Notes under the pieces: generated by a model
What the model saw: the letters and a program-made list of their open reading frames with translations, nothing else
Database searches by the model: none
Told to the model about the DNA's origin: nothing
Source of the DNA: a virus
Taxonomy: Duplodnaviria; Caudoviricetes
Virus record (IMG/VR): IMGVR_UViG_3300026177_000194
Location: 26,026 to 90,025 of that record
DNA length: 64,000 nt
Reading direction: 5' to 3' (one strand)
Position numbers and translations under genes: made by a program
Shown here: piece after piece, positions 38,538 to 44,126 of the stretch
Numbering within the stretch: the stretch's first letter is position 1
Layout of the letters: each line of letters opens with the position of its first letter

Positions 38538-39224
38538 TTAAATTATTTTTGCTTCTTCTTTTCTAAAATTCTTAACCTTCTTTAAAGTAACTTCCATACA
38601 TTTTAACCCAATTATTGATAAAGAATGTAAAGTTATGTAACCAGCATTATAAACATTTCTATTCAAATCAATATTCGGAATATTTCTAAATTTTTTATGA
38701 GCTATTGTATATTTTTTCTGTATGTTATTTTCAATTAAATGATTAAAAAATATTTTTCTAATATCTTCAATTCTATATTCACCATATAAATCAACTTTTA
38801 AATGAAAAGCTTTTTTACCACTAAACCGAATTTGTAAATCCTTTGTAAATTTTGCTTTTTCCATTATATTATGAATATCAATTATTGCATCTTTAGCCTT
38901 ATCAAAATTATCAGTATCTATATCAATAATTCCATAATTAGAATATTTATCCATTACAGAATGAAAACTTAATGTTCTTCCACTAACAATTGTATTATAA
39001 TCAGTTGGTGTTAATCTTATTAAACCTTTAGATTTGTTTTTTCTTATTACTATAGTCTTATTTAAACTTGTTGCAAAGAATACAATTAATGTTTTTCCTA
39101 AAGTTTCTTTTAAAAGATTTCTGCGATTTTGTTGATAATAATTCCAAATATCAACCTCTTTTAAACCACCCGGATAATACTCGTTTTTAACAATTATTTC
39201 ATATGGATTTTTTGGATAGGACAT
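38538..39224 (-). CDS. Archaeo-eukaryotic primase (LigD polymerase-domain-like) protein
   Basis: IIDIDTD (DxD), FSGKKAFH, NIDLNRN...HSL. Confidence 0.6.
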   Translation of the reverse strand: MSYPKNPYEIIVKNEYYPGGLKEVDIWNYYQQNRRNLLKETLGKTLIVFFATSLNKTIVIRKNKSKGLIRLTPTDYNTIVSGRTLSFHSVMDKYSNYGIIDIDTDNFDKAKDAIIDIHNIMEKAKFTKDLQIRFSGKKAFHLKVDLYGEYRIEDIRKIFFNHLIENNIQKKYTIAHKKFRNIPNIDLNRNVYNAGYITLHSLSIIGLKCMEVTLKKVKNFRKEEAKII

Positions 39225-39316
39225 GAAGATTCATCCTTTTTATTTTTGTTCATATTTTCAAAAATTTTATCTAAAAATTTTTCAGTATAGATGTAATTAC
39301 TACATATATTAATAAT

Positions 39317-39462
39317 TGAATGGAGGGAGAATGTTGATTTAGTTTTTCTTGCTGGGAGAATAGTTAATGATTATCCAGAAAATCATTGATGAAAAAACTT
39401 AAATCAAGAGGTCTCACCCCCGAGGGGGTTAATTCCAAGGTTCGAATCCTTGACTCCATTCA
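39317..39462 (+). ncRNA. tRNA-like structured RNA
   Basis: 9-bp terminal stem tgaatggag/ctccattca; T arm caagg-TTCGAAT-ccttg; acccc-cgag-ggggt arm; long ttgatttagttttt/aaaaaacttaaatcaa stem; follows the promoter motif. Confidence 0.6.
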
Positions 39463-39526
39463 TTTATTAGTATGTAACTGAGAAAAATAAAAACCAAACT
39501 CCATTGGTCTCAACTCAGTTTACATA

Positions 39527-39573
39527 AAAGATCCATCCTAAGATAACATCAAGCGGGTGGATCTTTCTCTTTT
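39527..39573 (+). terminator. Intrinsic terminator
   Basis: aaagatccatcc pairs with gggtggatcttt, followed by a T-rich tail. Confidence 0.65.
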
Positions 39574-39630
39574 GATTTTGAAGGGATATATAAATATATC
39601 CCATAAATATAATAAAAGAAGGAGGGTGTC

Positions 39631-40314
39631 ATGAACACAATTAAAAACATTTTTAAGATGTATATTGAAGTTTTCAAACAGATTACTTTGAAGGGAAGAA
39701 TGTCAAGAAAGGATTATTGGACATTCTTTATTATTAACGTTGTAATCAGTTTCAGTTTGGATTTTATCTCCAATGAAGTATATCGCATTTTCCTGGGAGT
39801 TTCAATTCTTCCCGGATTCTGTGCTGGGTGGAGAAGAATTCAAGACGCAGGCTACAAGGGTTGGTTTATCTTAATTCCAGTTGTTGGGTTTATAACTTTA
39901 TTCTTTAAGAGAAAGGAAGAAGTTGAAATTGGAGTTAAGATATTCACAAATAACTTTCCTGAAGTTCCTTGGTTGGAAAATGCTAATGCTAATCAAGTAA
40001 CAAATTTCCTTCTTAGTGATTGTGGATGTTCCTTTACAAATAATGGTTCCGGAGAATTAGTAAAGGGAGATAAATGTATTTGGTATCTTGGACTTTCTGA
40101 TAAATTTGGGAAGTTGAGATATAAGGATCAAGTCATCGAATGGGGATTTAATGAAGCAGATTTTAACATTGTTGAATCTTTCGTTCAGGTGATGTATCTT
40201 GATGGCTTCCTGAATAAACATCAGAATCGTCTTTTAAATGAAGCGATTGAGGAAGGGAGGAAGATTAAATCCATTTATGAGATTGGTGACTATTTAAAAA
40301 ATAAACAAATCTAA
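39631..40314 (+). CDS. DUF805-like membrane domain fused to an unknown C-terminal domain
   Basis: KGRMSRKDYWTF...WRRIQDAGYKGWFILIP. Confidence 0.7.
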   Translation: MNTIKNIFKMYIEVFKQITLKGRMSRKDYWTFFIINVVISFSLDFISNEVYRIFLGVSILPGFCAGWRRIQDAGYKGWFILIPVVGFITLFFKRKEEVEIGVKIFTNNFPEVPWLENANANQVTNFLLSDCGCSFTNNGSGELVKGDKCIWYLGLSDKFGKLRYKDQVIEWGFNEADFNIVESFVQVMYLDGFLNKHQNRLLNEAIEEGRKIKSIYEIGDYLKNKQI

Positions 40315-40336: not shown

Positions 40337-40489
40337 ATGTACAAGATTGCGGGAAAACATCTTCAGTGGTTAGCAAAGTCGATTTGTTATTCAAAAACGT
40401 CACGCTCATCAAAAGACAAAACCCCGGTTAAGTACGGGACGAAAGTCGTGAAGAAAGTTAATGGTGTTTTGGTCCCTGTCTCTGCCTGA
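40337..40489 (+). CDS. Small basic hypothetical protein (50 aa)
   Basis: Hand translation MYKIAGKHLQW...LVPVSA; GGGGG SD; followed by a hairpin. Confidence 0.5.
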   Translation: MYKIAGKHLQWLAKSICYSKTSRSSKDKTPVKYGTKVVKKVNGVLVPVSA

Positions 40490-40550
40490 GAAAAATAAAA
40501 AGGAGACACTACATCTCCTTTTTTAATAAATTTTAATGGAGGTCAATTAA

Positions 40551-40739
40551 ATGGACATGTCCCAAAAAACGGTAGCTAATTGGGTTGACTGGTGTCGGTA
40601 TATCAGAAAAATTCTTCCGGACCAGAAGTTTAATATCAAGTTTGCTGGTTATCAGTGGCAGCTTTATTGGTCTGGAGAAAGAGGTTCTGTCATGTGGGAT
40701 CTCGCCATCTATCTGATGGATAAATATGGATATGAATAG
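40551..40739 (+). CDS. Trp-rich hypothetical protein
   Basis: 62 aa; GGAGG SD. Confidence 0.6.
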   Translation: MDMSQKTVANWVDWCRYIRKILPDQKFNIKFAGYQWQLYWSGERGSVMWDLAIYLMDKYGYE

Positions 40740-41839: not shown

Positions 41840-42771
41840 AATTTCTCATACTCTCTGAACCAGTTAACAAATTTTTTAATACCATCTTCAAAGTCTACTT
41901 TTGGTTCAAACCCTAATATTTTTCTAGATTTAGTTAGATCAGGATTAGCTTCAACTATATCACCATCCTGCATCGGCTCATATTCTTTCTTAGGTTTTAT
42001 TCCTAAATAATTGGATATACAATCAACAGAATAATCGATATCTACTAATTTATCAGATCCTAAATTAAACTTTTCAATATTTCCATCTGAGGTCATTGTA
42101 GATATTATTCCAGGAATTAAATCATCAATGTATGTCCATGATCTTTTATTTTTTCCATAGTTAAAAACTTTAATTGGTTCATCTTTTAAAATTCCTTCTG
42201 TCCATTTCCATAGAGACAGATCTGGTCTTCCCCAAGGTCCATATACAGAAAAGAATCGCAATCCAACGGACTTTAATCCAAACATTTCAAAATATGAATC
42301 CGCTATAGATTCTGCTGAGATTTTAGTTGCACCATATAAACTAATTGGTTCTGATAAATTCATACTTTCATTCCATGGTATTTTATTCTTTCCATATACT
42401 GAAGCAGAGGAAGCATATATAAATCTTTCACATTCACATTTTTTTGCAAAATCAATTAATCTAAATGATCCAACAATATTTGAATTAATATATGATTCAG
42501 GATTTATTAAACTATATCTAACTCCAGCTTGTGCTGCTAAATGAATAATTAAATCAACTTTTGGTAATATTGAATATATCTTTTCATCTTCAATATTGCC
42601 ACTTAAAACATCAACATCATTTCTTATTAGTTTATATCTATCATATTTTATTTGAGGATCATAGTAATCATTAAAATTATCAATTCCAATAACTTCATGT
42701 CCTAATTCTAATAATTTTAAACAGGTATGAACTCCAATAAATCCACATGAACCACTAACTAAGATTTTCAT
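41836..42771 (-). CDS. NAD-dependent nucleotide-sugar epimerase (UDP-glucuronate 4-epimerase-like)
   Basis: GSCGFIG, LAAQAGVRYS, YASSASVYG, YGATK, RFFSVYGPWGRPD. Confidence 0.9.
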   Translation of the reverse strand: MKILVSGSCGFIGVHTCLKLLELGHEVIGIDNFNDYYDPQIKYDRYKLIRNDVDVLSGNIEDEKIYSILPKVDLIIHLAAQAGVRYSLINPESYINSNIVGSFRLIDFAKKCECERFIYASSASVYGKNKIPWNESMNLSEPISLYGATKISAESIADSYFEMFGLKSVGLRFFSVYGPWGRPDLSLWKWTEGILKDEPIKVFNYGKNKRSWTYIDDLIPGIISTMTSDGNIEKFNLGSDKLVDIDYSVDCISNYLGIKPKKEYEPMQDGDIVEANPDLTKSRKILGFEPKVDFEDGIKKFVNWFREYEKL

Positions 42772-42824
42772 ATTTTACTCCACATAATCCATTATAAAAA
42801 CTATTACTAAATATATTATTTTTT

Positions 42825-42960
42825 GAGAGAGGAGGTTTATTAAAGGTATAAGTTTTGATATGGCGCGAAACGTATCAAAATGAAAGCCTGCTGTTCGCGC
42901 AGTTCAAGGCTTCGTAGACAGATGCTTATTGCGCTGGATACGAAGCCTTACTCCTCTTTC
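42825..42960 (+). ncRNA. GC-rich structured RNA with a predicted pseudoknot
   Basis: 10-bp closing stem, two internal stems and a 7-bp loop-linker pairing; begins right after the promoter motif at 42805-42826. Confidence 0.65.
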
Positions 42961-42977
42961 ATTATTAATATTAGAGA

Positions 42978-44126
42978 TCAAGTAAATACTTGATCTCTAA
43001 TCTTCTTTAAAACATCAATAACATAATCAATTTCTTCTCGTTTCAATTTATAAAACATTGGTAATCTAATTGATCTATTATAAACATCTTTTGAAATTTC
43101 ACAATTATCATCTAGATTATTATAACAAGGCTGAATATAAGAACAATAGGTTCCAATCTGACATTGTATACCATTATCTTTTAATAATTGTATTAACTTA
43201 TTTCTATTTACAACTGGAGTAACTAAACAACTATATCCTTGAAAATTGTGAATATTTCCTTTCCCTTTTCTAGTATATGGTGCTTTAATATAATCAATTT
43301 CTTTTAACCTTTTGTTCCAATATCTAGCTAAAGCATTTTTCTTTTTAATAATTTTATCTAATTTTCTAAATTGTGCAATTCCAACTGCAGCAGCTAAATC
43401 ACTAAGTTTATAGTTAAATCCAATATTTTCAAATACCGGAATTTCAAATTCTTTACTATTTTCTCTACTCCAAGTATTCAATCCAAACGTTCCAAAACTT
43501 CTCGCTCTTAAAGCTATATCATCATCATTAGTTACTAGAAGTCCACCTTCTCCAACCCCAACACCTTTGGTTGCGTGCATTGAAAAGCATCCTATTTTTC
43601 CAATGGTTCCACAATATTGTCCTTTATATTTTGATCCCATAGCACAAGCGGCATCTTCAATTACCGGAATATTTTTTTTGTTTGCAATCTTCATAATTTT
43701 ATCCATATCTGCAGCTTGACCAAAAGTATGAACTACTATAATAGCTTTTGTCTTCTTTTTATTTATTTTCTTCTTTAAATCTTTATAATCCATATTATAA
43801 GTTTTTGGTTCTATATCAACAAAAACTGGTTTCATTCCACAATACTTTACTGAGTGTCCTGTTGCTGGATATGTATAATCCGCAACTAATATTTCCGGTT
43901 CTTCATCCTCTCTAGTTATAATTCCCAATCCAATTAAAGCTAAATGTAATGCAGTAGTACATGAAGAACAACATATAACATGTTTAACTCCCAGATATTC
44001 AGAAACCATTTTTTCTAATTCAATATTCTTTGGACCTTTTGTTAACCAACCAGTTTCTAATACTTTTTTAATTTCAATTAATTCATTTTTATCAATCCAT
44101 AATCTGCTCAATGGTACTTTTCTCAT
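42978..44126 (-). CDS. DegT/DnrJ/EryC1/StrS sugar aminotransferase (WbpE-like)
   Basis: SSCTTALHLAL, VHTFG, IEDAACA, FSMHATK..GVGEGG, GFNYKLSD. Confidence 0.9.
   Translation of the reverse strand: MRKVPLSRLWIDKNELIEIKKVLETGWLTKGPKNIELEKMVSEYLGVKHVICCSSCTTALHLALIGLGIITREDEEPEILVADYTYPATGHSVKYCGMKPVFVDIEPKTYNMDYKDLKKKINKKKTKAIIVVHTFGQAADMDKIMKIANKKNIPVIEDAACAMGSKYKGQYCGTIGKIGCFSMHATKGVGVGEGGLLVTNDDDIALRARSFGTFGLNTWSRENSKEFEIPVFENIGFNYKLSDLAAAVGIAQFRKLDKIIKKKNALARYWNKRLKEIDYIKAPYTRKGKGNIHNFQGYSCLVTPVVNRNKLIQLLKDNGIQCQIGTYCSYIQPCYNNLDDNCEISKDVYNRSIRLPMFYKLKREEIDYVIDVLKKIRDQVFT

Follow-up and report, generated by a model that had tools for sequence, protein, structure and literature searches.

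Bacteriophage T4 encodes species 1 RNA (rnaC), a 139-nt molecule (NC_000866, 70908-71046; L022:1909-2047) that is cut from a 1.75-kb precursor (PMC2330249) and classed as a late RNA (PMC9697503), and for which no function is known (PMC3014915, PMC9697503). Rfam holds no family for it, and one GenBank record labels it as tRNA-Lys. Mycobacteriophage DS6A makes an RNA that is little more than the tRNA-like domain (TLD) of transfer-messenger RNA (tmRNA) and that may titrate SmpB (PMC4131195), and bacterial Y RNAs mimic tRNA (PMC4201824). Here we analyse a tRNA-like RNA of 146 nt, built around a four-way junction, at positions 39317-39462 (plus strand) of a 64,000-nt stretch of viral DNA. This stretch, called the window below, comprises bases 26026-90025 of a 90-kb IMG/VR virus record (G000; CheckV completeness 19%). 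An earlier reading of the window from its letters alone (the sequence-only reading) had described the element as a promoter-driven mimic of tRNA possessing a T arm and lacking a D arm, an anticodon and a free CCA; rnaC, which is the closest precedent, was absent from it. Non-decoding tRNA-like folds that serve as handles for RNase P and RNase Z are also known from mascRNA of MALAT1 and from the tRNA-like/miRNA transcripts of murid herpesvirus 68. The RNA studied here resembles them in having such a fold beside other RNA modules, but those are eukaryotic systems.

The minimum free energy fold of 39317-39462 reaches -48 kcal/mol (z = -3.9), and none of 200 shuffled sequences folded equally well. 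Its layout agrees with the sequence-only reading, and all the parts described there (terminal stem, T arm, GC-rich hairpin, long arm) are in the sequence. In the window the RNA is closed by a 9-bp terminal stem, TGAATGGAG (39317-39325) with CTCCATTCA (39454-39462), as had been claimed, but only eight of these pairs (G2-G9) are conserved, and one variant has ten. The conserved part forms an acceptor-like stem of 8 bp in all variants, with GAATGGAG as its 5' strand (39318-39325, paired with 39454-39461). Its 3' strand, CTCCATTC, is followed by one base (A; T in two variants), the two together spanning 39454-39462, and no CCA comes after. The T arm, CAAGG-TTCGAAT-CCTTG (39436-39452), has the 5-bp stem and UUCRANY-type loop of a tRNA and is followed by a conserved unpaired A (39453).

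At the D-stem position, helix P1b pairs GAGA (39327-39330) with TCTC (39412-39415), next to an unpaired GG (39410-39411) that is invariant in the five variants known. The statement that the D arm is missing needs qualifying: no canonical D loop is found, but the place of the D stem is occupied by a helix of 3-4 bp that shows compensatory changes and is flanked 3' by the invariant GG. In the place of the D loop stands an arm of about 80 nt, and the whole irregular arm spans 39327-39415. Its stem P2 (39334-39341 with 39400-39407), a duplex formed in each variant, encloses a conserved tip (39343-39398). The tip consists of P2a (39343-39361), P2b (39363-39372 with 39381-39390, loop ATCCAGAA at 39373-39380) and the tail GATGAAAAAAC. 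Within it, CTGGG (39352-39356) is complementary to TCCAG (39374-39378); both segments are invariant, this is the sole internal complementarity, and a pseudoknot between them is possible. A short hairpin, ACCCC-CGAG-GGGGT (39416-39429; 5 bp and a CGAG tetraloop), stands at the anticodon-arm position. Seen as a cloverleaf, the molecule therefore has an acceptor stem, a D-stem-like helix that carries the long arm instead of a loop, a sealed hairpin at the anticodon position, and a variable region of 5-6 nt before a normal T arm. The word GGTTCRANYCC occurs three times in the window, versus 0.15 expected, and one occurrence belongs to a true tRNA. The third T-loop-like word, GGTTCAAACCC at 41903-41913, lies within a minus-strand epimerase gene and is probably there by chance.

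We compared this fold with those of rnaC from T4, IME523, KM16, KaAlpha and NM4.3. The rnaC fold has a terminal stem on the T arm CCGGG-UUCGAAU-CCCGG, a 3-bp AGG/CCU helix from which a long arm extends, and another hairpin followed by a UAAU linker; diverged copies retain it, and their T stem covaries. The rnaC folds show the same order of parts, and the two RNAs share one plan. They are similar in length, neither has an anticodon, and in both an acceptor-like stem stacks onto a T arm of the canonical form GGUUCGAAUCC. A short helix (3-bp AGG/CCU in rnaC, GAGA/UCUC here) opens a long irregular arm, and a second hairpin with a UAAU-type linker precedes the T arm. Both are carried by T4-type phages, as part of a longer transcript. 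There are also differences. rnaC stands at the end of a tRNA gene cluster, whereas the RNA of the window has its own promoter motif, its nearest tRNA being 8 kb away. The loops UUGACG and CGUCAA and a UU/UU mismatch in the stem, invariant in five of five rnaC sequences, are absent here. Finally, the conserved part here is the arm tip and the second hairpin is dispensable, whereas in rnaC it is the reverse. In the rnaC alignment (A5), the two invariant loops, UUGACG at the apex of the long arm and CGUCAA in the second hairpin, likely form a 6-bp kissing pair.

Five distinct variants of the RNA, 139-149 nt long, were found in JGI, ENA and Logan samples that are independent of one another: the window type (shared by L025 and L039-L041), L023/L024, L029/L030/L054, G001 (L010/L037) and L038/L053. 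The DNA polymerase of the record led to three related IMG/VR contigs, one of which, G001, carries an RNA 76% identical to that of the window; homologues of the flanking 228-aa protein, which are many, led to further contigs; and one pattern scan of metagenomes was made. With exact patterns, IMG/VR yielded G001 only, and the JGI and ENA metagenomes five contigs. No match to the RNA was found by blastn among 50,697 phage records, IMG/VR locus searches with either flanking protein singly returned nothing, and the family model R3 detected no further copy in G002-G004. Model R1 likewise had no match in phage SPP1. The RNA family is therefore narrow, with five variants from digester and wastewater samples, and its carriers are a small group of large phages, distant kin of T4.

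Paired positions are kept in pairing among these variants. In the model-fitted alignment 96.3% of pair cells are standard, versus 33-52% with slid partners, and none of 500 shuffles was equally good; since this alignment shifts the terminal stem of one variant by two columns, it overstates the number of double changes. A second, independent alignment (MAFFT and RNAalifold) recovered four helices, namely the 8-bp terminal stem, the two hairpins of the tip and the T arm, and two compensatory pairs. Compensatory changes are seen in the terminal stem, in the P1b and P2 duplexes and in the tip hairpin. The A-U pair 39324/39455 becomes G-C in L038/L053, where the terminal stem has 10 bp. P1b reads GAGA/UCUC in the window, AAGA/UCUU in L023 and AGG/CCU in G001, all of which pair. 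The 5' and 3' segments of the AU-rich stem P2 differ in sequence from one variant to another yet still pair, with, for example, G-C in the window against A-U in L023. P2b shows one compensatory change, one break, and seven one-sided changes, spread over four positions, that remain paired.

Conservation is highest in the tip of about 55 nt, UUUUCUURCUGGGAGAAUAGUYARUGRUUAUCCAGRAAAYYAWUGAUGA (alignments A3/A6), within which CUGGGAGAAUA and AUCCAGRA are invariant. We searched the 90-kb record for antisense targets of the tip and found no complementarity of 10 nt or more beyond AT-rich words at chance level. In the T arm, four of the five pairs of the stem never change, the loop reads TTCGAAT in three variants, TTCGATT in one and TTCGAAAC in one, and the A that stays unpaired between this stem and the 3' acceptor strand is invariant. 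The GC-rich hairpin that the sequence-only reading had pointed out is present in the window but is not conserved: different small hairpins, with loops of 12 or 6 nt, take its place in other variants, and G001 has an 11-nt linker. Taken with the fold and the pairing record of the five variants, these results uphold the central claim of that reading, mimicry of the acceptor and T arms by a conserved, promoter-linked RNA.

The known classes of tRNA, tmRNA and Y RNA do not account for the locus. Rfam gave nothing at gathering scores for the RNA and only chance-level matches at permissive thresholds, and over 501 nt no tRNA match (RF00005) appeared at gathering score nor at E<=10; the only match in the tRNA clan under the latter threshold was tmRNA (RF00023), on the T arm only, with 9.6 bits against a cut-off of 47. 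ARAGORN at its default threshold called no tRNA or tmRNA in any of the five variants, and its -m and -i modes were also negative. An ordinary tRNA interrupted by an intron was rejected as well, since with stringency lowered (-ps80) the models disagree, giving Pro(ggg), Thr(cgt), Lys(ttt), Leu(taa) and Pro(ggg) and varying the position of the intron. There is no conserved 7-nt loop on a 5-bp stem that could hold an anticodon: the loop has 4, 12 or 6 nt, or the hairpin is absent. Reading an anticodon loop into CUGGGAG or into the 8-nt loop AUCCAGAA was rejected too, as no fitting 5-bp stem exists and the ARAGORN models are inconsistent. The earlier statement that an anticodon and a free CCA are lacking therefore stands; the RNA cannot decode and is probably not aminoacylated. 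A role directed at synthetases is disfavoured by the lack of an encoded CCA and by a discriminator that varies.

YrlA resembles this RNA in being non-coding, with a module that mimics tRNA, and some copies are phage-encoded. Its ends, however, form the Ro60-binding stem and its tRNA-like part is internal, whereas here the ends form the acceptor-like stem; YrlA and other Y RNAs were rejected on this difference in topology and on the lack of an Rfam match at E<=10. K-turn, C/D-box and hammerhead readings of UGAUGA were likewise discarded, the other defining elements of each being absent and the SNORD matches being at chance level. A related phage record, G002, contains an aberrant class-II tRNA-like gene of 112 nt (L048:517-628, minus strand; G002:C1:25316-25427). 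It has normal acceptor, D and T arms and a 20-nt 'anticodon loop', scores 28.9 bits with RF00005, just under the cut-off, and is negative with ARAGORN.

A promoter-like region (39281-39320) precedes the RNA, within which we tentatively assign TTCAGT (39281-39286), an 18-nt spacer and TATATT (39305-39310) as hexamers, with +1 at 39317/39318. It includes the conserved motif ACTACATATATTAATAATTGAA (39299-39320). The 16-mer ACTACATATATTAATA, at up to two mismatches, matches four places in the window, all on the plus strand, versus 0.35 expected. The RNA does not begin just after this conserved plus-strand motif, as the sequence-only reading held, because the motif extends as wTTGAA and the first four bases of the RNA, TGAA, are its 3' end. 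The early timing that this reading gave to the RNA is a guess. Every variant has the same motif immediately before the RNA. About ten copies occur in the 90-kb record, every one on the plus strand. Seven have a Shine-Dalgarno (SD) sequence and an ATG 16-25 nt past the motif end, and one more has them at 62 nt; three precede RNA-like sequence, namely the tRNA-like RNA, the copy at 42806 and one beyond the window. Since structured, ORF-free sequence follows the last two (42806-42960 in the window, and G000:C1:8836-8960 beyond it), the phage appears, judging from sequence, to produce three or more small RNAs from such promoters. The copy at G000:C1:8836-8960 ends with a clear stem and T-run terminator. 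For the second plus-strand RNA, Rfam at permissive thresholds gave matches only at chance level in 42750-43000. At this site (42778-42983), the contig of a relative in one RNA-library run swaps 204 bases for 311 other letters, another sign of exchangeable RNA sites.

The RNA is present in RNA libraries. Nine runs recorded as RNA, from three studies (wastewater, anaerobic digester, activated sludge), hold 69-80% of the words sampled from 39250-39700; the evidence consists of assembled contigs, whose depths cannot compare the abundance of a small RNA with that of an mRNA. One contig of a digester run covers 39326-39818, one of a sludge run 39333-39742, and others reach about 40400-40600. These contigs therefore bridge the 3' end of the RNA, both downstream hairpins and the start of the next ORF. 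The RNA is thus seen in RNA libraries joined to the downstream mRNA, and the idea of a free-standing RNA gene has to be given up, the contigs running through the downstream hairpins into the DUF805 ORF. Both contigs start 9-16 nt past the predicted +1, where DNA-like runs carry on, which is a weak hint of a 5' end. The flanking minus-strand genes are uncovered in X7 and X11, the two informative RNA runs, while cover is even in X6 and in X1, which is probably DNA; missing cover in contigs is no proof.

The record that carries the RNA has about 27% G+C, nearly all its genes lie on the minus strand, and its proteins include a family B DNA polymerase, a portal, a helicase and other phage proteins. 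Because the best cultured matches of the polymerase (T4-type cyanophages, a Pelagibacter phage and Straboviridae) are only 27-30% identical to it, the phage is classed, from its sequence, as a very distant T4-type phage. The RNA lies in a divergent gap between a minus-strand gene without a family (38538-39224) and a plus-strand gene for a 227-aa DUF805 protein (39631-40314; Pfam PF05656, E = 1.6e-11), within a region of sugar-pathway (glycan) genes and with no tRNA neighbours. ARAGORN calls a single tRNA in the 90-kb record, with anticodon CUA, 8 kb from the RNA. A suspected paralogy between two 227-aa plus-strand ORFs was rejected.

The plus-strand unit, of about 1.3 kb, comprises the RNA first, then hairpins, a leaky terminator-like hairpin, the DUF805 gene and small ORFs. 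The first downstream hairpin (39473-39527) carries a 17-nt loop, AAACCAAACTCCATTGG, identical in all variants having the hairpin, even though the stem of L031 is wholly different (GTTAACATTCTTG/CAAGAATGTTAAC). This loop repeats the 3' acceptor strand of the RNA, ACTCCATT, and L038 and L053 have two copies of the motif. We rejected the loop motif CCAAACTCCATYGG as a dispersed repeat, as it has a single copy in G000. The second, terminator-like hairpin (39530-39573), GATCCATCC..GGGTGGATC followed by TTTCTCTTTT, was read from the sequence and is conserved in the variants; RNA-library contigs cross it, and a simple terminator scanner does not call it because its loop has 16 nt. Finally, a perfect, AT-rich palindromic hairpin with GGG/CCC clamps, GGGATATAT-AA-ATATATCCC (39583-39602), lies just 5' of the ribosome-binding site. 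It is kept in all relatives, those with a short leader included, its stems covarying even in G002, L034 and L035, which lack the RNA; an RNase III-type site and an operator are both conceivable roles for it.

What stands between promoter and palindrome differs among relatives. Some have the RNA, with or without the two intervening hairpins; L031/L032 have another RNA of about 190 nt, L038/L053 have both, and the site is empty in G002, L034, L035, L026, L049 and L050. The alternative RNA (L031:2076-2500, minus strand) is richer in GC and uses the same site and promoter; it has no Rfam family, and permissive thresholds gave chance-level matches only. The ORF behind the site is not constant either, other variants carrying different ORFs. 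Since both the contents of the site and the ORF behind it differ, the data argue that the RNA is an independent accessory module, an exchangeable cassette, and not an integral regulator of one gene.

The explanation that best fits these observations, and which we hold with moderate confidence, is that of a genuine phage non-coding RNA, an anticodon-less look-alike of tRNA on the rnaC plan, in which a handle for tRNA maturation is combined with a working tip. Transcription would start at G 39318, and since the inferred start lies there, the 5' end would be born base-paired. The acceptor/T minihelix would then serve as a handle for the host machinery of tRNA maturation. An RNase Z-type cut after the unpaired base 39462, perhaps with CCA addition and T-loop modification, would release and stabilise an RNA of about 145 nt. 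The invariant tip would be the working part, binding a protein or an RNA target. A protein of 451 aa encoded in record G002 (L047, G002:C1:97598-97954) belongs to the CCA-adding-enzyme/poly(A) polymerase family (PF01743, 112.8 bits).

Several results weigh against this explanation. The contigs show the RNA joined to downstream mRNA and, being contigs, cannot resolve a discrete species of about 145 nt. The extra unpaired A and the stem of 8-10 bp depart from the 7+5 bp minihelix of tRNA, which is what RNase P, RNase Z and the CCA enzyme gauge. There is no canonical D loop with which to build a tRNA elbow, the GG being merely suggestive, and the record with the CCA-enzyme gene is one without this RNA. 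As to the kinship with rnaC, the kissing loops and UU/UU mismatches are missing from this RNA. A model of rnaC (R2) found nothing at these loci with default filters, and only 14 mis-registered bits with filters off. In the other direction, the best-scoring place for models R1 and R3 within the T4 tRNA region is the 3' third of rnaC (15.6 bits, E = 0.017, and 16.1 bits, E = 0.084, respectively), whereas the five variants of the RNA itself score 72-186 bits with a covariance model. Beyond this 3' third no convincing similarity in sequence or in covariance models was seen, so that homology between the two RNAs is at most putative.

The main rival is a leader acting in cis, whether as a base-paired 5' cap against decay, a punctuation signal at the 5' end, or a put-like RNA promoting terminator read-through. 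The place of the RNA, after +1 and ahead of both a terminator-like hairpin and the first ORF, the predicted pairing of the 5' end and the contigs that continue from the RNA into the ORF and past it are what a leader would give. The composition of the site agrees less well: in G001 the RNA occurs without the terminator-like hairpin, in L031 the hairpin and a terminator-like element occur without the RNA, several relatives have the same leader with neither, and the downstream gene varies among the variants. Nor would a 5' cap call for anything as elaborate as a canonical T loop and an invariant tip of 55 nt, and we regard this rival as rather unlikely. A sponge function is a possible extension of the maturation-handle explanation more than a contradiction of it: the RNA would act as a decoy for a host protein that binds acceptor and T arms (a tRNA-cleaving defence nuclease, a modifying or processing enzyme, a Ro60-type protein) and would protect phage or host tRNAs. 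It would account for a canonical T arm and acceptor-like stem from which the decoding part is absent, for the presence in RNA libraries, and for the patchy cassette with a strong phage promoter and small accessory genes, typical of counter-defence loci; tRNA mimicry by Y RNAs (PMC4201824) and the TLD-only phage RNA (PMC4131195) are precedents in print. But anticodon nucleases read an anticodon loop, which is absent here, and the top conservation falls in the tip, which is not tRNA-like and would be superfluous in a pure decoy. In addition, no TROVE/Ro60 gene (PF05731) was found in G000, G001 or G002, all of them incomplete records. On balance, the decoy seems an unlikely function.

Two readings make the RNA a message. 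As a minimal tmRNA, it would use the frame xCU GGG AGA AUA GUY ARU GRU UAU CCA GRA AAY YAW UGA UGA, of 12 codons with a double stop and open in five of five variants, as a short tag, or it would titrate SmpB like the TLD-only phage RNA in print (PMC4131195). The acceptor, the T arm, the long helix in the place of the anticodon arm, the lack of self-decoding and the existence of phage examples all recall the tRNA-like domain of tmRNA. Yet the third acceptor pair is A-U in all variants instead of G3-U70, the discriminator is A or U, and neither an encoded CCA, nor a D-loop analogue, nor pseudoknots, nor a credible tag are found. Two variants have GCU as resume codon and three have ACU, the tag would end in NH, NY or NQ, which are not hydrophobic, and the substitutions suit the hairpin as well as the frame. 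With the ARAGORN -m and Rfam results above, this leaves the tmRNA reading highly improbable. SmpB was not found in the same three incomplete records, which is uninformative about the host. As an RNA with a dual function, it would encode a micro-peptide in the tip, M-I/V-I-Q-K/E-I/T-I/N-D-E/D-K..., which is MIIQKIIDEKT in the window type. The SD sequence GGGAGA, the 7-nt spacer and the AUG/GUG start are kept in five of five variants, and the first ten residues are similar. The ORF, however, has 11, 12, 18, 19 or 32 codons and enters structural parts, in one variant the T arm. Its substitutions show no third-position bias and suit the hairpin at least as well, start codon and SD lie within conserved helices, and the stretch before the start is more conserved than the ORF itself. 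A coding function is therefore very unlikely. The claim that no tag ORF exists thus has to be amended, as both a 12-codon frame ending in UGAUGA and a micro-ORF are there, but neither bears the marks of a tmRNA tag. It is hardly credible, lastly, that the element is a functionless remnant, be it a decaying tRNA pseudogene, an intron-bearing tRNA or an attP-type copy of the 3' end of a host tRNA. The tRNA-like T arm and acceptor, and the aberrant 112-nt gene of a related phage, would fit such an origin; the compensatory changes and the nearly invariant 55-nt tip in five variants do not, the intron models are inconsistent, and an attP fragment has no need of a fully paired 5' strand. Furthermore, neither the tip motif nor the 24-mer of T arm and acceptor matched in a set of bacterial and archaeal genomes covering 185,579 species with one genome apiece, which at that stringency leaves neither a host copy nor an attB-type source.

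Since the 1970s T4 species 1 RNA has been without an assigned function, and the locus of the window adds a second, independent RNA of the same plan in a very distant T4-type phage. The comparison shows which parts of the plan are kept (the acceptor/T minihelix, a short junction helix and a long arm) and which are free (the hairpin at the anticodon position and the genomic location). The value is comparative rather than direct for now, and the family is narrow; it does offer concrete targets for mutagenesis, in the T loop, the GG and the invariant loops of the tip. The RNA's own promoter, the compensatory changes and the presence in RNA libraries support the idea that phages have converted tRNA frames, more than once, into RNAs that do not decode. 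A further conjecture, which we consider doubtful, is that this RNA, rnaC and other anticodon-less phage look-alikes of tRNA are one class, in which the top half of a tRNA hijacks the tRNA machinery and displays an exchangeable effector arm, the tip here capturing a host factor such as a tRNA-directed defence or quality-control protein. If true, such a class would be a general RNA-based device for counter-defence or host takeover, and would open a route into the 50-year-old question of rnaC.

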